From an archaeon (GTDB lineage Archaea > Asgardarchaeota > Thorarchaeia > Thorarchaeales > Thorarchaeaceae), in assembly GCA_024275415.1 (NCBI GenBank), contig JAJRZD010000014.1, forward strand, positions 30,001 through 62,000: a DNA stretch of 32,000 nucleotides, written 5' to 3'. The position numbers and the translations under genes were made by a program. The notes below the pieces were generated by a model. That model was not told where the DNA came from. It searched no databases and saw only the letters and a program-made list of their open reading frames with translations. Below, piece by piece: positions 4,414 through 12,615 of this stretch. The stretch's first letter is position 1. Each line of letters begins with the position of its first letter.

Positions 4414-4998
4414 TTAGAAGTTCACAAAATGCAGCATGAAGTGAGCCTTTGGATGGTCACAAGCTGGGCATTTCTCAGGGGCCTCGTCACCTTCATGTAC
4501 ATAGCCACAGTTCTGACACACCCATTTGGTCTTCTGTTCGCTTTTGAAGACCTTGCCGCTAGCGACGTTTTCAGCCAGCTTGATGTATCGTTCATGGTGC
4601 CATGTTTCTGCCTTAGCCACCATTCGAAAGACATGTGCGATGTTCTTGAACCCTTCTTCCTCAGCGATATCAGCATATTGTGGGTACATCTCAGAGAACT
4701 CGTACTTCTCACCAGCTGCCGAAGCTCGTAGGTTCTCTTCAGTGTTGCCTAGAGGTCCTGTAGGAAAGTTCCATTTGACTTCCACTTCGGTGGGCGCCCC
4801 AGCCTCCTGAAGGAACTTGAAGAACCTCTTTGCATGTTCCTTCTCGTGACCTGCTGTTTCTTCAAAGATATTTGCGATCTGAACATAACCCTCCTTCTTG
4901 GCTACCTTGGCATAGTACGTATACCTGTTCCTAGCCTGAGACTCGCCTGCAAACGCTGTAAGGAGGTTCTTTTCAGTTCGTGATCCTCTTAAATCCAT
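4414..4998 (-). CDS. rbr: Rubrerythrin
   Basis: TEKNLLTAFAGESQARNRY, diiron ligands EKEH / EKYE / ETWH, and C-terminal rubredoxin-like WVCQNCGY...KCPACDH. Confidence 0.95.
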   Translation of the reverse strand: MDLRGSRTEKNLLTAFAGESQARNRYTYYAKVAKKEGYVQIANIFEETAGHEKEHAKRFFKFLQEAGAPTEVEVKWNFPTGPLGNTEENLRASAAGEKYEFSEMYPQYADIAEEEGFKNIAHVFRMVAKAETWHHERYIKLAENVASGKVFKSEQKTKWVCQNCGYVHEGDEAPEKCPACDHPKAHFMLHFVNF

Positions 4999-5170
4999 CT
5001 TTCACTTCTCCTGTTCATGTCAGAAAGACACGAATCACATTCAGATTCTATTTTAGTTTATTAAACATGCGACATGACACTTTTTTGCGACCAGTTGATT
5101 CATATATTCATTTTATCTACTATCAATGTGAGGGAACATCAACATCACGATTAAAGGAGCATGAGGGTCG

Positions 5171-6241
5171 ATGGTACGAATTGCTCATATCTCGGATTCC
5201 CATTTGGGTTCATCAATGTTCCAGTTGATAGAACGACGGGAGGATGCGCGGGCGTGCCTGAAGAAGGCGGTTGACATGGCACTCCGTCACTCTCCAGACA
5301 TCCTCGTTCACACTGGAGACCTCTTTGATTCTCCTGAGCCACATCCTGACGATATCAATCATGTGCTAAAGATATTCAAGGATATAGAAGACACTAAAGT
5401 CATTGTACTTCACGGGAACCATGACATCCCCTACGGATACAAATATCACCACAGTCCGATTCGCTATCTTGAAACTGTCGAGTTTGTTATGACGACCGGG
5501 GACAATCCCAGTAGTGTTCACCAGTACGATATTGACGGAAAGCAGGTTGATATCCATCTGATATCTTGGACGAGAAAGAAACAATTCCAGAAAATACTAG
5601 GTGACATGGAACCTGAGTCCGACATTGCCGTTCTCTTTGCCCATGATATTCCAGTTGAAATTGATGAGCTACCTATACACTATGATTATATCGGGCACGG
5701 ACACTCGCACAATTTCAAACTGGATGAGGATATGGCGATTGGTTGCCCTGGTTCCACACATATCATCGATTGGAAAAGGGAGCTTGGCAAAAAACGGAAA
5801 CTGATTGTTGCTGATATTGACAAGAATGGAACTGAATTCACCACTGAAACATTGAACGATATCCGAGAATTCAAGTTTCATCCTGGTTTAGATATCACTG
5901 GACTGGATGCTCAGTCAGCCAATATCAAGATGAAGGACTGGCTGAAGAATCTCTCACCAAAGAAAAAAGACCCCCCTATTGTCATCGTGCGAGTGAATGG
6001 TATGATATTCGCAGAAACTGAGAAAGGGATTGAACGTAACTCGTTGATTGAATTTGGCGAGAAGCACCTGAATCCCTTGTTTCTGCACATCGAACCGAAC
6101 TGGAATGTCGTTGGTCCTCCCGAACTGGATTTATCGCGCCCTTTGGATGTGAAACGCTCGTTGGAAGAATACATGGAGTTCAAAAAGGATCCCAAGAAAG
6201 AACTTGTAATAGAGGAGCTTCAGAAGATACTCGGAGAGTAG
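5171..6241 (+). CDS. Mre11/SbcD-like calcineurin-family nuclease
   Basis: Metallophosphoesterase motifs HISDSHLG, TGDLFD, GNHD, FAHD, GHGHSH; a predicted helical C-terminal tail resembling the Rad50-binding region; 4 nt from the ATPase gene. Confidence 0.85.
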   Translation: MVRIAHISDSHLGSSMFQLIERREDARACLKKAVDMALRHSPDILVHTGDLFDSPEPHPDDINHVLKIFKDIEDTKVIVLHGNHDIPYGYKYHHSPIRYLETVEFVMTTGDNPSSVHQYDIDGKQVDIHLISWTRKKQFQKILGDMEPESDIAVLFAHDIPVEIDELPIHYDYIGHGHSHNFKLDEDMAIGCPGSTHIIDWKRELGKKRKLIVADIDKNGTEFTTETLNDIREFKFHPGLDITGLDAQSANIKMKDWLKNLSPKKKDPPIVIVRVNGMIFAETEKGIERNSLIEFGEKHLNPLFLHIEPNWNVVGPPELDLSRPLDVKRSLEEYMEFKKDPKKELVIEELQKILGE

Positions 6242-6245
6242 CAGG

Positions 6246-7538
6246 ATGCTTAGACAGTTACGTATGACAGATTTCAAAGTGTTCAATGAAATCGACTTTC
6301 AGTTCTCGCAGGGCATAACCGCTATAGTAGGACCTAACGGGTCTGGAAAGACCACCATCCTAGAGGCAATCGAGTTTGCACTCTTTCGTCAGGTGACAAG
6401 AAAGGAGAAGACTGTTCGCAATTTTGAGGACTTCATTAGACATGGAAGAAAACGGGCCATTGTCGAGCTTGAGTTCAGGGCTCCAGTAAACAGGCGGTTC
6501 TATCGAGTAACAAGGTCAATTCATCCTGGGAAGACGAATGCTGATCTGTATGATGATGCTGGTTCAGACCCTATTGTGTCAGGTCCTACAAAGGTCGACG
6601 ATGAGATTGTTCGACTGATTGGCATGGATCGTCATGCTTTCTCCACCCTCACATACGTTCGCCAAGGGGAGATTGATCGCCTCTCACGGCTTCCACCTAA
6701 GAAGCGCAGGGCAGACCTCTATAGTATGATGGGTCTTGGCATTTATGATAAGACCGAGGATCGCGTTCAGAAACAGATCCGTGAGTTGAAGAAACGGATG
6801 TCATCTGTAGAGGACACAAAGCAAAGGCTTGAATCTATCAAGTCACATCTGCCAGCGCCAGATGAGATAGCGTCGTCAAGGGAATCGCTTGAACGTATTA
6901 AGGACAAGCTTGGCGAGAGTGATGACATCGTCCAGATATTGGGAGTCATAGAAAAAGTAGAAACATCTCTCCAACGTGTCATTGACCATCTCAATTCGCC
7001 AGAGCTGACCAATGAATACGAGGAGATGAAGGAGGAACGTGAAGCCGCAAGTTACCTTAAAGAGATACTCGGGGTTCTTCCAGAAGTGGCAGAGAGCCAA
7101 CTGAAACCTGAGATTAGATCAGAGGCACGAGAGATCTTTAGAGGTATATTTGGTGACCGATACAGTGACCTTGTCATAGATGAGGACTATAATGTATCCC
7201 TGTATGATCTCAGAGGTCACAGGGTTAGCCTTACTGCTGCATCAGGAGGAGAGGATGTCTGTGTGAATTTCGCCCTTCGTGTCGCAGTGAACACAGCACT
7301 CCAGAAGCAAGCAGCTCATAGAATACCTCCTCCGGGTATCATCATACTTGATGAGCCTGGGGCGGGGTTGGACACTCAAAGAAGAAAATGGCTGCCTATG
7401 GCAATAGCTGGTCTGAAAACAGTTGATCAGGTTCTCGTGGTCACACACATGGAGGAGCTGAGGGAGTCTGCAGACCGGATTGTCCTTTTGACCCCTCAAG
7501 GAAAACAGAGGCAACCCATGGTCGATGTCATCGAGTAA
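6246..7538 (+). CDS. Short Rad50/SbcC-like SMC-family ATPase (430 aa, no zinc hook)
   Basis: Walker A GPNGSGKT (29-36), Q-loop VRQGE (Q140), signature ASGGE (332-336), Walker B IIILDE, D-loop GAGLD, H-switch VVTH; only one Cys (C339). Confidence 0.85.
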   Translation: MLRQLRMTDFKVFNEIDFQFSQGITAIVGPNGSGKTTILEAIEFALFRQVTRKEKTVRNFEDFIRHGRKRAIVELEFRAPVNRRFYRVTRSIHPGKTNADLYDDAGSDPIVSGPTKVDDEIVRLIGMDRHAFSTLTYVRQGEIDRLSRLPPKKRRADLYSMMGLGIYDKTEDRVQKQIRELKKRMSSVEDTKQRLESIKSHLPAPDEIASSRESLERIKDKLGESDDIVQILGVIEKVETSLQRVIDHLNSPELTNEYEEMKEEREAASYLKEILGVLPEVAESQLKPEIRSEAREIFRGIFGDRYSDLVIDEDYNVSLYDLRGHRVSLTAASGGEDVCVNFALRVAVNTALQKQAAHRIPPPGIIILDEPGAGLDTQRRKWLPMAIAGLKTVDQVLVVTHMEELRESADRIVLLTPQGKQRQPMVDVIE

Positions 7539-7631: not shown

Positions 7632-8822
7632 CTAATCGAAAATCTCCTTTCGAATATCTGACACATCAGTCTTGTCGCGGATCAATCTGCGCAGTTTCAT
7701 CGCGACCTTCTTGTTACCGAGGGCTATTCCCCCCACGACAACGTAGTCCTTCATGACCGCTTTGTAGTATGTGCCAGCTTCGTGGTCTGCCATTACGATC
7801 GATTCGAACTCTGTTGACTGCGGGTTGAAGTTCCCGACCGAAGTCAAATCGATGCCAGCCACTTTTAATGTGTTGCTTGGGGTAGTGCCCTCATAGGTTG
7901 CACTTCCAAGGTCGACGATGTTCCTAGCAGCTATTTTTGCGGTATCCATGGCAACGGGAATGATTCCCCAGCATACACCCTTCCATTCTGTGCAATCACC
8001 TGCCGCAAAGACGGTAGGGCTTGAGGTCTGCATGTGCTCATTGACGAGAATTCCTCGGGCTTTCCCAGTTTCAAGGCCTGCACTGGTGGCTATTTTGGTA
8101 TTGGGTCTGATGCCTGTGGAGATTACAACGAGGTCTCCTTTGACCTTGTCCCCCTTGTCTGAAACAACCCCCGTTGCAACCTCATGTCCTAGGACTTGGC
8201 TGCACGAGAAGCCCAGTAGCACTGTGATTCCCATCCTTTGAAGGTGTTCCATCAAGATTTGACTTGCACCTTGGTCGAGTTGGGCTGGGAGAAGTGTGCC
8301 AATATTTGAGATGACGATTGGCTCTCCTCCGCTCTTTCGGATAGCAGCAGCCAACTCTATTCCCAAGATACCTCCTCCTACGATGATCTCCCTCCCCGAG
8401 CCCTTCACAGCTTCTTTGATTGCGGTCGCATCGTCCAACGACTTCAGGGTATGTACGTTCTTCTTTTCTGTACCATGTATGGGTGGGACAAACGGATGAC
8501 TACCAATTGCCAGTAAGATGTTCTCATAGCCAAAGTATGTGCCTGCATTTGTGAGGACACTTCCTGATGACGGGACAATATCCACAACCGGTTCGGAAAG
8601 GTGTAAAGTGACATCCTGTTTTTCATACCACGCCGCGTTATATTGTACAACATTCTCCTTTGGGATATCCCCACGGATGTAATCGACCAACCGTGGCTTT
8701 GGGTAGTACCCATAGGCTTCTTCAGTGAACACATCAATCTCCATGTCTGCGCCCAGACCACGGATCTCCCGAATCGCAGTGACCGCGGCGATACCATTCC
8801 CGAGAATCGCAATTTTCTTCAT
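7632..8822 (-). CDS. NAD(P)/FAD-dependent oxidoreductase, NADH:rubredoxin oxidoreductase-like
   Basis: From ATG at 8822: MKKIAILGNGIAA (FAD Rossmann), GGGILGIE (NADH Rossmann), VFAAGDC, and C-terminal TLKVAGIDLTSVG...YYKAV domain. The ORF-track extension to 8960 has no family similarity and overlaps the HAD ORF. Confidence 0.85.
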   Translation of the reverse strand: MKKIAILGNGIAAVTAIREIRGLGADMEIDVFTEEAYGYYPKPRLVDYIRGDIPKENVVQYNAAWYEKQDVTLHLSEPVVDIVPSSGSVLTNAGTYFGYENILLAIGSHPFVPPIHGTEKKNVHTLKSLDDATAIKEAVKGSGREIIVGGGILGIELAAAIRKSGGEPIVISNIGTLLPAQLDQGASQILMEHLQRMGITVLLGFSCSQVLGHEVATGVVSDKGDKVKGDLVVISTGIRPNTKIATSAGLETGKARGILVNEHMQTSSPTVFAAGDCTEWKGVCWGIIPVAMDTAKIAARNIVDLGSATYEGTTPSNTLKVAGIDLTSVGNFNPQSTEFESIVMADHEAGTYYKAVMKDYVVVGGIALGNKKVAMKLRRLIRDKTDVSDIRKEIFD

Positions 8823-8920
8823 CCAATCGCCCTTCTTTTCTCTTGTATCATTCCCAAAGGTAAACATTCTTGAAGGTATCGAATTGGTTGACCTATCATA
8901 CTCTGGAGATGTGGATTGGC

Positions 8921-9682
8921 ATGGAAATACGAGCGATTCTCCTTGATCTGCACCATACATTGACCACTACAAAATCATCTGTCATCGATGTGGTACGCCA
9001 AATCATGAATAATCACGGACTGGACACATCACATCTTAGTGATGCCCTGTTCGTCGCTGCCTTAGATAAGGCAGACCAAGTAATGGCGTCCTATCAGGTA
9101 TCGAACAATGTTGGTCCTCACTGGGGAGCGGATCCTGAGGATTGGTTGATGTTCGACAGGATTTTCCTTGAGGAGTTGGGTTTTCATGGTTTCACGGATG
9201 ATGATATTCTCACTATTGAGAATGAGTTCAAAGCTATTACCCGTGACAGTGATTGGGAATACTTTACTGAGGACGCATTGTCAGCGATCAGGACACTTCA
9301 TGCTATGGGTTTCACTCTTGGGATATGTACGAAACGGAACGACAACCCTCAGGGGTTCCTATCACGAAGCAAAGTAGCAGACCTCTTCGAAACAGTTCAG
9401 TGGTCTGGGGTGGCGGGCTATGCCAAGCCAAGTCCCTATACCTTGCTTGAGGCGGTGAAGGAGATTGGAGTGAATCCCCGTCGCTGTCTTTTTGTGGGTA
9501 ATTATGTCGGGGTTGATGTCGAAGCTGCACTCAGATGTGAGATGATTCCTGTGTTGCTCTCATGGGCAAACCCTCGTGAAGCCGACAAAGCCCCGCCAGA
9601 ATGCATTGTATTGGACAAGCCTACTGATCTTGTAGAATGGATTCGTTCACAGTCCCCTCATCTCCGACAGGATTCGGAGTAG
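8921..9682 (+). CDS. HAD-superfamily hydrolase with variant motifs
   Basis: AILLDLHHTL (motif I), GICTK (II), AKPSP (III), FVGNYVGVD (IV). Start placed at ATG 8921, just before motif I. Confidence 0.75.
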   Translation: MEIRAILLDLHHTLTTTKSSVIDVVRQIMNNHGLDTSHLSDALFVAALDKADQVMASYQVSNNVGPHWGADPEDWLMFDRIFLEELGFHGFTDDDILTIENEFKAITRDSDWEYFTEDALSAIRTLHAMGFTLGICTKRNDNPQGFLSRSKVADLFETVQWSGVAGYAKPSPYTLLEAVKEIGVNPRRCLFVGNYVGVDVEAALRCEMIPVLLSWANPREADKAPPECIVLDKPTDLVEWIRSQSPHLRQDSE

Positions 9683-10955
9683 GTTTCTCCTGTTTGGCGA
9701 AAAGTCGATTCCTCAGGTTTCTGAATCGGATACCTATGGATTTCGTGAATGCCATTACCAGCCGTGCCGGGAGTACGGCGAATCCAAGAACGATCCTCAT
9801 CGCCTTGGATTTCATAGTACCTTTCTCTGGGTATCCGATGTAGGCGAGTGTATGTTCCTGTAGAATATCCTGCAAAGCGACTGCAAAGGCCTGTGTCACG
9901 ACATTTGAGAGACCCAGCCCTTTGAAGACATCGTTCTCGCTGAACTCTTTCCTATCGATTACGCTTTTCCATTTGATGTACTTGGCTTTCTCGATGATGT
10001 CATTGAGGGCATAGACAAGTTCTCCTAGATACGGTGCTAGTGTTTGTTCAACAACTGTCGGCTCAGGACTTGAATTGAATTCGTGATATATCTGTTTGGC
10101 GGGCTCAAGTCCTCGTACAGGTGGCTTGAACCAGAGGATGTGCAAAAGCCCTTCAACCTCACGTAGTTTCCCATTCATCCGCCTTTCGAGTTCTGCTGGT
10201 ATCTTGTCTTGCACGACTTCCTTTGCCTTGGAGAAGGCGTTCATATGGAGTTCTTTCCATGTCCTCTCCAGATCGATTACCGCCTTTGCGTATCTATAGA
10301 ACTTGAAGTCAAGAGCGTGTTCGATATCCTCAGTTGTGAGCACGATGATTTCATTGGTACTGTATGTAAGTCCTCCTGACGCCATCTCCCATAGTCGCTG
10401 GTTCATGTCAAGTGGGTGCCTTTTATCCCGCGGGATTTCTAAGCGCATGGCATGGTCGCCAGGCTGAGCTACAATGTAACAGTGGTTCAGGACATCTTCT
10501 ACCGAATCGAACATCGTCAGTTCGGTGGGGAGCAGATCCATTGCACCATGACCGGTCGTTGACCAGCAGATCATTCTCCCAGTTTCGTTATCTCTTTCGA
10601 TGATGACCCTCTCTTTATCTCCCAGATGGTCAAACTGGTCTGTGAGGCCCTTACTGTATGCCATAATCCCATAGAGCACGAACCTCTCCTTGTTTGGCAA
10701 GAGTCCTGGCATTTTGAGGATGAACCCAATCGTATCAAGCGGCTTTCCAGAGGACAACCATGCACCAGTTGCTTGATTCCATTCCCAGCGGTCTCCAAGC
10801 TTGTAAAATATCTCTCTGAGGGTTTCCAGATCCTTCGCCTCTTTTGCCTTTTGCAGTGTCTGAGCTTCCCATTGTTCATACTCCCTCTTCATTTTGAGCA
10901 TGCTTTTGCGCTCGATTTCGAGCCAGCTAGATTCAATCTTGAGACTTACTTTCAT
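9621..10955 (-). CDS. Hypothetical protein, 444 aa (possible NPP1/Vps62-like motif)
   Basis: Long open frame with natural composition; overlaps the HAD 3' end convergently by 62 nt; family uncertain. Confidence 0.7.
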   Translation of the reverse strand: MKVSLKIESSWLEIERKSMLKMKREYEQWEAQTLQKAKEAKDLETLREIFYKLGDRWEWNQATGAWLSSGKPLDTIGFILKMPGLLPNKERFVLYGIMAYSKGLTDQFDHLGDKERVIIERDNETGRMICWSTTGHGAMDLLPTELTMFDSVEDVLNHCYIVAQPGDHAMRLEIPRDKRHPLDMNQRLWEMASGGLTYSTNEIIVLTTEDIEHALDFKFYRYAKAVIDLERTWKELHMNAFSKAKEVVQDKIPAELERRMNGKLREVEGLLHILWFKPPVRGLEPAKQIYHEFNSSPEPTVVEQTLAPYLGELVYALNDIIEKAKYIKWKSVIDRKEFSENDVFKGLGLSNVVTQAFAVALQDILQEHTLAYIGYPEKGTMKSKAMRIVLGFAVLPARLVMAFTKSIGIRFRNLRNRLFAKQEKPTPNPVGDEGTVNESILQDQ

Positions 10956-11049
10956 CAGGGCTTCACACTGGGCTTTTTTCTGTAATCATCGAGGTCTTCA
11001 ATTTCACATCAGCTTAGAACCACATATGCATATCGTTGTTAGTACTACA

Positions 11050-12024
11050 TTAAGAACCGGGAATGACCGATAATATCTCTTCGATAACGTCTCGCAAGTA
11101 CTCCAATCTATCTGGAGTTTCAATGAATGTACTCGTATTTCTGAGATTTACATTCCTATGTATATATGTCAGTTCCATAGTCCGTTCATTGTGGTTCGCT
11201 ATCACCCAGTCCGAAATCTCTCTCTGAAACAACCTGTTTTTGATAGATTCAATTATTCTGGTATCAGCCTCAATAACGAGCCTCTCATTATCTTTGGATG
11301 AAATCCCTATATAATATCGGATACTGACACCGTCCACCTCTGTAGCGACAAAGAAATCATGGATTGCTCTTTTTCCATTTCTGACTTTCCAAACCACACT
11401 TTGGAGTAAGTCCATAGTCATATTGGCGAAGAGAGCCATCCTTGATGTAACAAAATACTCAAGATGTGAAAGGTCATCCTCAAAGTATCTGTACGATGGG
11501 AAGTAATTCTTTCCGTAATAATAGGATAAACTGCTAAGGACACCTAGCACTATTCCGGAACTCAGACTCGTAATTTCACAGTAACCATTGAAGAGGACAA
11601 AAGCTGTACTGAACACAGTCCAGATTATTATAGAGAACCAGACAAGATCCATTATGTCGTCTATTTCTGCATCATCTGCCTTCATGGCCTGATAATGGAA
11701 CCCCTCGAAGATTCTTTGGATATCTGAATTATGGGTTTCTTGAATCTCATCTTCCCATCCTTCACCGAGTAACGCGGGATCCTGAAGATACAATGCTGTC
11801 CTTGCGTTTTCGCCCAGCTGATTAGAATAGCGTGTGTAGAACAGTCCCGTAAGTAACTGAATTGCGGCGAAGAGAATTGCAGCGAGCAGCGGGATCTCGG
11901 TAGTACAAACGATTGCTACTATTATACTATAGACTGCGACTACTGGCACATTAAGAATGATGAACCTCCGGTCATGCCAACTCACTTCCGACGAGTCTAT
12001 TATGACCTGCTCATGGGTTGACAT
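11050..12024 (-). CDS. Hypothetical membrane protein (about 4 TM segments plus soluble C-terminal domain)
   Basis: Two pairs of hydrophobic stretches (about aa 21-62 and 127-170) separated by an acidic loop; no family recognised. Confidence 0.7.
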   Translation of the reverse strand: MSTHEQVIIDSSEVSWHDRRFIILNVPVVAVYSIIVAIVCTTEIPLLAAILFAAIQLLTGLFYTRYSNQLGENARTALYLQDPALLGEGWEDEIQETHNSDIQRIFEGFHYQAMKADDAEIDDIMDLVWFSIIIWTVFSTAFVLFNGYCEITSLSSGIVLGVLSSLSYYYGKNYFPSYRYFEDDLSHLEYFVTSRMALFANMTMDLLQSVVWKVRNGKRAIHDFFVATEVDGVSIRYYIGISSKDNERLVIEADTRIIESIKNRLFQREISDWVIANHNERTMELTYIHRNVNLRNTSTFIETPDRLEYLRDVIEEILSVIPGS

Positions 12025-12057
12025 GTCCCTCCCTTCCAGTGGGCACCTTCAACTGTT

Positions 12058-12615
12058 CTAATCGATGAAGAACACATCACCTTGATTCTCATATGCAAAT
12101 ACGCGAACATGCATATTATTCTCTAAGACATGACATGCATCTTTCACTTTGACTATTGCTATGTTCATCCTGTGATATGCAGCTGCAGCGAACTCGCTAA
12201 CAGAATCACCAAATTCGGATATCACGGCCGAAACATTGCTCATCAGAATGTCGAGGTCGCCAGGATTATCGATGAAATGCTGTTCCATGTCGTGATGTAA
12301 TACGGCAATCTCATCAGATGCCCATTCCCGTTCGAGATCCTTCTTCTCGCAGATCAATACTACTCTTCCACTAAACTCGCCACTCTCTCCCACAGACTCT
12401 CCTCTCAGAATAGGAAATGTCGGAGCACTCTGGGTATTTGAATCACCTGGTGACATTTGATGCACCTCATCTTCATATGCTTTTGTGAATACCTGCCTAT
12501 AATGTTTCGGGCACTCCCTATATTGCTTTTTTTCATATAGGTACAGTATGAACTCGCCCGATATATCCCACCTAATCAATCCAAACATTGTCACTACCTG
12601 CTTTTGGATATACAT
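12058..12615 (-). CDS. PEP-utilising enzyme mobile (swivel) domain protein, degenerate
   Basis: LRGESVGESGEFSGRVVLI...DEIAVL...SAVISEFGDSVSEFAAAAYHRMNIAIVKVKDACHVLENNMHVRV follows the swivel-domain pattern. The start may be at a downstream Met (MFGLIRW). Confidence 0.6.
   Translation of the reverse strand: MYIQKQVVTMFGLIRWDISGEFILYLYEKKQYRECPKHYRQVFTKAYEDEVHQMSPGDSNTQSAPTFPILRGESVGESGEFSGRVVLICEKKDLEREWASDEIAVLHHDMEQHFIDNPGDLDILMSNVSAVISEFGDSVSEFAAAAYHRMNIAIVKVKDACHVLENNMHVRVFAYENQGDVFFID

Follow-up and report, generated by a model that had tools for sequence, protein, structure and literature searches.

Within a 32,000-nucleotide stretch of a thorarchaeal genome (assembly GCA_024275415.1, contig JAJRZD010000014.1, positions 30,001 to 62,000 of the forward strand; hereafter the window, whose stretch corresponds to contig C116 of a 3.5-Mb, 93%-complete assembly), two adjacent genes encode a miniature Mre11-Rad50 (MR) pair whose ATPase has neither the long coiled coil nor the CxxC zinc hook of Rad50. 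We propose, with a probability of roughly 60%, that this mini pair is a lineage-specific third MR paralogue that acts as a compact clamp-nuclease of two Mre11 and two Rad50 subunits (M2R2), the short arms of which are joined through a hydrophobic apex. Zinc hook and long coils are treated as hallmarks of Rad50/SbcC proteins, and their part in the recognition and cutting of DNA ends is still debated.

The two plus-strand open reading frames (ORFs) span positions 5171-6241 (356 amino acids, aa) and 6246-7538 (430 aa). The mini mre11 stop codon (TAG, 6239-6241) is followed by a spacer of 4 nt (CAGG) and then by the ATG of the ATPase gene at 6246. An earlier note, made from the letters of the window alone, had described a complete Mre11/SbcD-type gene 4 nt upstream of a 430-aa ATPase bearing all Rad50/SMC ABC motifs, and had claimed that an inter-lobe segment of about 135 aa was broken by prolines and lacked a CxxC, that C339 was the only cysteine, and that herA and nurA were absent from the window. 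The reading frames and the spacer are as it said, and no ABC motif from Walker A through to the H-loop is missing; the structure model places about 125 aa outside the head, close to the original estimate, prolines occur at 203, 205, 252, 279, and 288, C339 is single, and the neighboring genes encode a rubrerythrin and a rubredoxin-reductase-like oxidoreductase. The observation of a hookless mini Mre11-Rad50 gene pair is real and is confirmed here, and both long frames are kept at 50-74% identity across more than 100 clusters, far beyond chance. The features of the pair are:

4999-5170, no strand: A+T-rich intergenic region between the divergent rubrerythrin gene (minus) and mini mre11 (plus), presumed from sequence only to be the promoter region.
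5171-6241, plus strand: mini Mre11, 356 aa, a phosphoesterase nuclease with a capping domain and two C-terminal helices (Pfam, PDB match, AlphaFold2 [AF2], Foldseek).
6239-6248, plus strand: gene junction TAG-CAGG-ATG, tightly coupled (sequence; adjacency across loci).
6246-7538, plus strand: mini Rad50, 430 aa, an ABC ATPase of Rad50 type with a short helical insert between the two lobes of its head (Pfam, NCBIfam, AF2, Foldseek).
6330-6353, plus strand: Walker A, aa 29-36 (G29, N31, G32, G34, and K35 invariant).
6738-7112, plus strand: inter-lobe insert, aa 165-289, modeled as an antiparallel coiled coil (DSSP of the AF2 model, invariant prolines, span census).
6792-7004, plus strand: predicted homodimer interface, aa 183-253, comprising apex helices 205-222 and 226-249 and the top of helix 165-201 (complex model).
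7242-7262, plus strand: signature SGGE (aa 333-336) and, after it, DVC with C339, which is invariant and specific to the family (motif scan, alignment).

Mini Mre11 is a calcineurin-type phosphoesterase (Pfam Metallophos, 6.7e-13) whose best NCBIfam matches are Mre11/SbcD models and whose best sequence match in the PDB is Mre11 of M. jannaschii (1.5e-10). Metal-ligand motifs I-V are kept, with D9, H11, D50, N83, H84, H158, H178, and H180 invariant in the family alignment. The AF2 model (predicted local distance difference test [pLDDT] 92.6, predicted template modeling score [pTM] 0.84) has the nuclease and capping fold, and all of its top 50 Foldseek matches are Mre11/SbcD proteins; it aligns over its full length with 3AV0_A, which contains the Rad50-binding helices. 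Two C-terminal helices in the model (aa 327-337 and 343-353) are likely to be the corresponding Rad50-binding helix-loop-helix.

Mini Rad50 matches Pfam AAA_23 (1.7e-27) and SMC_N (4.5e-23), as well as five NCBIfam archaeal Rad50 models (1e-38 to 1e-45, always in separate N- and C-terminal stretches); its scores against the latter are far below the curated cut-offs (NF041034, 155 bits versus 1000; PRK03918, 147 versus 700). Its motifs are Walker A (aa 29), the Q-loop RQGE (139), the signature SGGE (333), Walker B ILDEP (367), and the H-loop VTH (399); all catalytic residues are invariant in an alignment of 32 family sequences, as are P203, P279, and C339, its only cysteine. The Pfam model Rad50_zn_hook matches the genome's Rad50 paralogues on contigs C9 and C20, and not mini Rad50. 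The best PDB sequence match is M. jannaschii Rad50 (6e-38), and the AF2 model (pLDDT 88.9, pTM 0.76) retrieves with Foldseek the engineered, truncated-coil M. jannaschii Rad50 heads (5DNY, 3AUY, 3AV0) before other Rad50/SbcC and SMC heads. By all three comparisons (NCBIfam, PDB, Foldseek), the head is closest to that of archaeal Rad50 and not to SMC, RecN, RecF, or transporters. An ABC head with Walker A, Q-loop, signature, Walker B/D-loop, and H-loop, a Rad50-like fold and sequence, and an Mre11/SbcD partner are thus present, and a long coil, a CxxC hook, and an equivalog-level NCBIfam score are not. Because long coil and hook are missing while head, partner, and fold are there, we set the mini pair apart from canonical MR and file it as a variant rather than as a canonical member. 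Separately, the family has its own invariant block straight after the signature, SGGEDVCVNFALRV (aa 333-346, window 7242-7283), which contains C339, and further invariant blocks at TRKEK (aa 51-55), FGDRY.D (302-308), and the C-terminal PQGK.RQP (417-424).

The short length is a property of the whole family. A search of 5.8 billion clustered proteins (homologues being drawn from NCBI, JGI, ENA, and Logan assemblies) returned more than 120 clusters that match mini Rad50 at 57-74% identity, all of them 419-446 aa long and mostly labeled Candidatus Thorarchaeota, with single records under the labels Hermod-, Hod-, or Promethearchaeota. None of 122 family members has a CxxC, and the span from Walker A to the signature is 300-309 aa in every one of the 122; among 138 representatives of other Rad50-like proteins it ranges from 412 to 880 aa, with a median of 674. 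An exhaustive HMMER scan of 1.84 billion representatives recovered only three full-length mini clusters at 50% identity (432, 433, and 443 aa), beyond which scores fall sharply to longer proteins, with a central CxxC in 140 of the 141 next-best; the homologues of mini Mre11 form an equally tight family (355-365 aa). That the short ATPase reflects a deletion during assembly, an error of gene calling, or a pseudogene in decay can be dismissed for all practical purposes: the 122 homologues are independent and uniformly short, and a coil-deletion artifact is therefore ruled out, while the catalytic residues are invariant, the AF2 models confident, and the frames without stops. The earlier note's view that the pair is a nuclease-ATPase paralogue of its own kind, hookless and with coils reduced to stubs, also holds, as homologues are uniformly short and no described short-SbcC family with known function claims it. 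Among the papers searched, none describes a hookless Rad50 about 430 aa long, whether from Asgard archaea or elsewhere.

As evident from DSSP of the AF2 model, the inter-lobe helices run from aa 165 to 201, 205 to 222, 226 to 249, and 256 to 302, boundaries that leave the above-mentioned 125 or so residues outside the head, and the coil breaks at two matched positions, the invariant L202-P203 and the near-invariant S251-P252. With its geometry taken from DSSP and the contact list, the modeled insert reads as one antiparallel coiled coil with matched kinks, some 55-58 residues per arm and about 8 nm long; for comparison, Rad50 coils measure about 100 Å in phages, 250 Å in bacteria, 300 Å in archaea, and 600 Å in eukaryotes (PMC7752040). 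When two copies of aa 160-295 were co-folded with the family alignment, the homodimer reached an ipSAE of 0.73, versus 0.01 for the best control; among proteins of solved structure, that mark was attained by 20 of 30 whose structures are pairs and by 1 of 23 whose structures are single chains. Runs agreed in at least 98% of contacts, with a partner pLDDT of at least 82. The contacts span aa 183-253, and residues 198, 218, and 231 each touch their own counterpart (198:198, 218:218, 231:231); because these lie at differing heights of the coil, we infer from the contact list that the two inserts pack in parallel, in register and side by side, and that the two heads share one side. In 122 sequences, columns of the predicted interface show stronger conservation than the other columns of the stretch (1.83 versus 2.52 bits, Mann-Whitney p=0.006). 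The apex helices are hydrophobic on two faces and the lower coil carries a single a/d stripe, a pattern consistent with two strands in the lower coil and a bundle of four helices at the top; the unpaired lower portion (aa 165-182) is about 27 Å long. The complex model supports dimerization of the mini Rad50 insert through its apex. A proposal that the insert (aa 205-250) dimerizes in the manner of RecN is thereby backed as to self-association but not as to arrangement: RecN associates tip to tip and antiparallel, and the modeled contacts are parallel and side by side.

Archaeal mre11 and rad50 genes are usually linked to herA and nurA. A full-length rad50-mre11-herA-nurA locus, which the earlier note had suggested looking for elsewhere in the genome, occurs twice, on contigs C20 and C9. 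The core end-resection operon on C20 (L041:6711-13234, minus strand) consists of a nurA-like gene (447 aa), herA (587 aa), an mre11-like gene (436 aa), and rad50 (694 aa), the product of which is rather short yet hooked (CPTC). This type of Mre11, which is so divergent that it was not found with the mini Mre11 query at E<=0.001, is present in 79 of 81 genomes of the same GTDB family and in 23 of the 23 high-quality ones. The second nurA-herA-mre11-rad50 operon (C9; L010:6656-12549) encodes a long Rad50 with a CPRC hook that is cut by the contig end, its probable C-terminus lying at C37:33113-34060. The C9-type Mre11 was found in only 7 of the 81 family genomes, to whose copies it is 42-47% identical, and in none of the six other genomes of the genus; the operon may have been acquired horizontally, or the contig may be mis-binned (the contamination estimate for the assembly is 4.5%). 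In addition, genes for a NurA of 387 aa and a HerA of 522 aa stand by themselves downstream of CTP synthase on C43 (L042:7445-10136), with neither mre11 nor rad50 near them, and this NurA type is present in 80 of the 81 genomes. Given a core operon and a rarer second operon in the same genome, the mini pair is therefore a third paralogue.

Other arrangements were considered and rejected. That the mini pair might be the sole MR of the lineage, a reading raised by the scarcity of the C9 Mre11, fails because of the near-ubiquity of the C20 type, and the C9 operon is itself too rare, and too consistently missed in the rest of the genus, to be the canonical MR. Nor is there support for a recent origin of mini Rad50 by duplication of the hooked Rad50 in this genome: its paralogues there are no closer to it than is M. 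jannaschii Rad50, and in the quick tree described below, which leaves deep nodes unresolved, the mini family groups with the putative hairpin forms. Asgard MR, HerA, and NurA proteins have been described as experimentally uncharacterized (PMC13748450).

Of 76 genomes of one GTDB family, 41 yielded the mini ATPase, as did the only genome of a sister family (38% identity), and 224 genomes from 28 other Asgard families yielded none (E<=1e-40); these genomes are samples, many of them incomplete, and not found does not equal absent. An Mre11-like gene lies directly upstream of the ATPase gene in every one of 19 additional loci that reach the upstream gene, the exception being L027, a 2768-base locus that ends at the ATPase and leaves the upstream gene outside. 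The pair is also adjacent in the sister family, with different neighbors. No third conserved gene accompanies it in any locus examined, and neither the window nor any homologous locus contains herA or nurA, such that linkage in a herA-mre11-rad50-nurA operon was not observed. In most genera the oxidoreductase gene is convergent downstream, with a HAD hydrolase gene beyond it. In two high-quality genomes without the pair (97% and 93% complete), the oxidoreductase gene is directly convergent with a GH3-family gene, which in a genome with the pair ends just upstream of mini mre11; the two genes are therefore cleanly present or absent at one site. Identity of the mini ATPase tracks taxonomy (66-74% within a genus, 51-62% within the family, 38% to the sister family), and the divergence of the core, C20-type Mre11 is similar (61-69% within a genus, 50-63% within the family). 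No defense or mobile-element genes flank the pair in the window, and no signal of horizontal gene transfer was seen for it. Fixed synteny, taxonomy-like identity, core-like divergence, and the lack of defense or mobile flanks thus together point to an old, vertically inherited, dispensable chromosomal module and not to a mobile defense island.

The nearest proteins outside the mini family, with E values of 7e-49 and 3e-46, are P0127 (679 aa) and P0128 and P0382 (596 and 607 aa). All three lack a CxxC and have two strongly hydrophobic segments in mid-coil (19-residue Kyte-Doolittle maxima >3), which we regard, on hydropathy, as a putative transmembrane hairpin at the apex. Like mini Rad50, each of these longer forms is encoded immediately after a gene for an Mre11-like protein of about 380 aa (L030:2913-5882; L031:8855-11824). 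Unlike mini Rad50, they are 596-679 aa long with hydrophobic mid-coil segments, and at least one pair, that of L031, sits beside a 924-aa restriction-modification (R-M) gene of MmeI/Eco57I type, with ParA, recombinase-like, Hjc-like, and small ORFs nearby. Maximum-likelihood analysis of 89 sequences by a quick search places the mini family (SH-aLRT 99) together with the putative hairpin forms (100) in a single clade without hooks (97), apart from the Rad50-like groups that have them; deeper nodes of this quick tree are not resolved, and long branches lead to the paralogues of the genome itself. The literature searched contained no description of a membrane-anchored Rad50/SbcC. As a side observation, the hairpin forms have SGGED and N.ALR in common with mini Rad50, without the cysteine.

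To our knowledge, M2R2 composition is common to all known MR/SbcCD enzymes, and here, too, we would expect two of the 430-aa Rad50-type ATPases to bind a dimer of catalytically intact Mre11. The zinc hook would be replaced by the upper coil, as a hydrophobic hairpin of helices that packs against its counterpart in the other subunit in parallel orientation, such that a small ring or clamp would close just above the ATPase heads, with room for about one DNA duplex and to the exclusion of tethering distant DNA. ATP binding and hydrolysis would then clamp the DNA and give Mre11 cutting access, as in the cutting state of SbcCD and MR, the mechanism being modeled on published work on those enzymes (PMC7752040). 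The mini complex would act without HerA-NurA, which belong to the separate core operon. This scheme builds on what can be observed directly, namely the gene pair with its motifs and folds, its uniform hookless shortness, its distribution and synteny, and its coexistence with hooked operons. By analogy with SbcCD, our best guess at the substrate would be blocked or hairpin ends that are processed locally, and the flanking rubrerythrin and rubredoxin-reductase genes possibly tie this activity to oxidative damage. A more far-reaching proposal, to which we would give rather less than even odds, is that of a minimal MR in which a hydrophobic four-helix apex replaces the hook and closes a one-duplex ring, and which belongs to an unrecognized hookless clade whose other branch anchors the apex in the membrane.

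Several points weigh against the compact clamp-nuclease. The pair is dispensable, being not found in 35 of the 76 family genomes and cleanly gone from the syntenic site in the two high-quality ones; the link to oxidative stress comes from neighboring genes only, which are not co-transcribed with it; and the complex model is of the isolated insert, where helical fragments may pair spuriously. Moreover, an apex with two hydrophobic faces could serve to contact Mre11 or some third protein instead, for which there is a precedent in the apex of LmuB, the Rad50-like subunit of Lamassu, which binds LmuC and LmuA (PMC12663957). This last point leads to the alternative of an open, head-only MR that keeps the head chemistry of such enzymes but forms no ring, the apex of which would be a docking site for another factor or for Mre11. 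The stability of the engineered truncated-coil Rad50 heads, its best structural matches, without any apex contacts would agree with such an arrangement, but the complex model strongly prefers a symmetric homodimer over its controls and no third gene is conserved with the pair in any locus, and we regard the open form as improbable.

Only slightly better is the standing of the main rival, an anti-phage or anti-plasmid nuclease in which a compacted Rad50-like sensor of foreign DNA ends would be coupled to an Mre11 effector, by analogy with the coil-shortened, SbcCD-derived Lamassu. The best PADLOC match of mini Rad50 is indeed a defense protein, mad3, and extends over the full length (6.9e-37), staged shortening of the coil accompanied the repurposing of SbcCD into Lamassu (PMC12663957), the sister clade of P0128 and P0382 lies beside the MmeI/Eco57I-type R-M gene with its ParA, recombinase-like, and small ORFs, and the pair is polymorphic for presence and absence even inside one genus. 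However, it occupies the same chromosomal site across genera, between redox and metabolic genes rather than defense or mobile ones, its identity follows taxonomy at a divergence that matches core Mre11 with no sign of horizontal transfer, and mini Mre11 has no meaningful PADLOC match; the partner of MAD3, a Toprim/OLD-type nuclease in an eight-gene operon, is absent here. Because synteny is fixed and the rate of divergence is like that of core Mre11, the genomic evidence favors a chromosomal, vertically inherited enzyme over a nuclease directed against mobile genetic elements.

If the proposal of a minimal MR with a four-helix apex is true, then a conserved cellular function of MR can do without long arms, joining by zinc, and tethering over long range, and a compact natural complex (about 180 kDa as M2R2) becomes available for studying the whole clamp-and-cut cycle, at a size that permits complete structural work. 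Since the mini family keeps the whole of Mre11 and the head while having an arm of about 8 nm and no hook, it amounts to a natural experiment on arm-dependent functions, and since the pair coexists with hooked MR in the same cells, a division of labor between them is testable. The pair extends the little-studied DNA-repair repertoire of Asgard archaea, and the sister forms with their putative membrane hairpin hint that apex modules among Rad50-like proteins have a variety yet to be explored.

The genes on either side of the pair in the window are:

4414-4998, minus strand: rubrerythrin, divergent and upstream of the mini pair in the window's genus.
7632-8960, minus strand: rubredoxin-NAD+-reductase-like oxidoreductase (Pyr_redox_2 and Rubredoxin_C), convergent and downstream.

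Rubrerythrin and rubredoxin-NAD+ reductase are parts of an anaerobic route of peroxide and oxygen detoxification. Farther downstream, three consecutive minus-strand ORFs (444, 324, and 185 aa; window 9621-12615) have no Pfam match at E<=1e-4, and the 444-aa ORF is syntenic with the HAD gene in several genera.

Compared with known systems, membership in RecN, MADS, and Lamassu was rejected in each case. Mini Rad50 scores 41.5 bits against the RecN model TIGR00634 (cut-off 407.85) and is always paired with Mre11, versus the stand-alone SOS gene recN. Its match to mad3 of MADS aligns aa 2-424 with positions 2-346 of 374, and MAD3 of the P. aeruginosa system is likewise a short SMC/Rad50-like ABC ATPase, which assembles 2:2 with the Toprim/OLD-like nuclease MAD4 and is encoded in an eight-gene operon (PMC13662399). 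That operon includes a methyltransferase and a kinase, whereas the window contains neither an eight-gene operon nor MAD4; the partner in the mini pair has the Mre11 fold, and the neighbors are rubrerythrin, oxidoreductase, and HAD hydrolase. Lamassu resembles the mini pair in having an SbcC-like ATPase with a shortened coil, the apex of which makes protein contacts, the coil having been shortened stepwise and the Mre11 nuclease domain lost as SbcCD was repurposed for defense (LmuB, 600-800 aa; PMC12663957). It differs in its LmuA effectors and defense context, whereas the mini pair retains a full Mre11 in a non-defense context, has no LmuA or LmuC neighbors, and at 430 aa falls well short of LmuB, which it matches only in part (PADLOC, 1.6e-19).

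Phage SbcCD-like proteins come nearer. In the ESM Atlas, the nearest entries to mini Rad50 by features are phage SbcC-like clusters of 544-570 aa, its neighbors by shape are all 556-880 aa long with phage SbcC-like proteins among the nearest, and PHROG 77 matches it at 7.7e-41. Nevertheless, the phage ATPases (544-590 aa) are 110-160 aa longer, those of the T4 gp46 type bear a hook, and the mini family is cellular, chromosomal, and hookless in contrast to the phage pairs. The phage homologues (T4 gp46/gp47 type) are the shortest Rad50 proteins described, with coils of about 100 Å (PMC7752040).

SbcCD of E. coli (PDB 6S6V, 6S85, 7YZO) is among the top fold matches and is also a two-gene nuclease-ATPase without HerA and NurA, the coils of which zip up over DNA in the cutting state, the mechanism that we propose for the mini pair; its SbcC, however, has 1048 aa and a zinc hook, and similarity to mini Rad50 is restricted to the heads. 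The natural archaeal Rad50 has a coil of about 300 Å with a CxxC zinc hook (PMC7752040), as against some 55-58 residues per arm, no hook, and no linkage to herA/nurA in the mini pair. Even so, archaeal Mre11-Rad50, as represented by M. jannaschii (PDB 3AV0, 5DNY, 3AUX), is the best match in sequence and fold for both mini subunits, with which it shares the full set of ABC motifs, the nuclease, capping domain, and C-terminal helices, and the gene order mre11-rad50, and mini Rad50 is a natural protein that resembles the truncated-coil head constructs engineered from such enzymes for crystallography.

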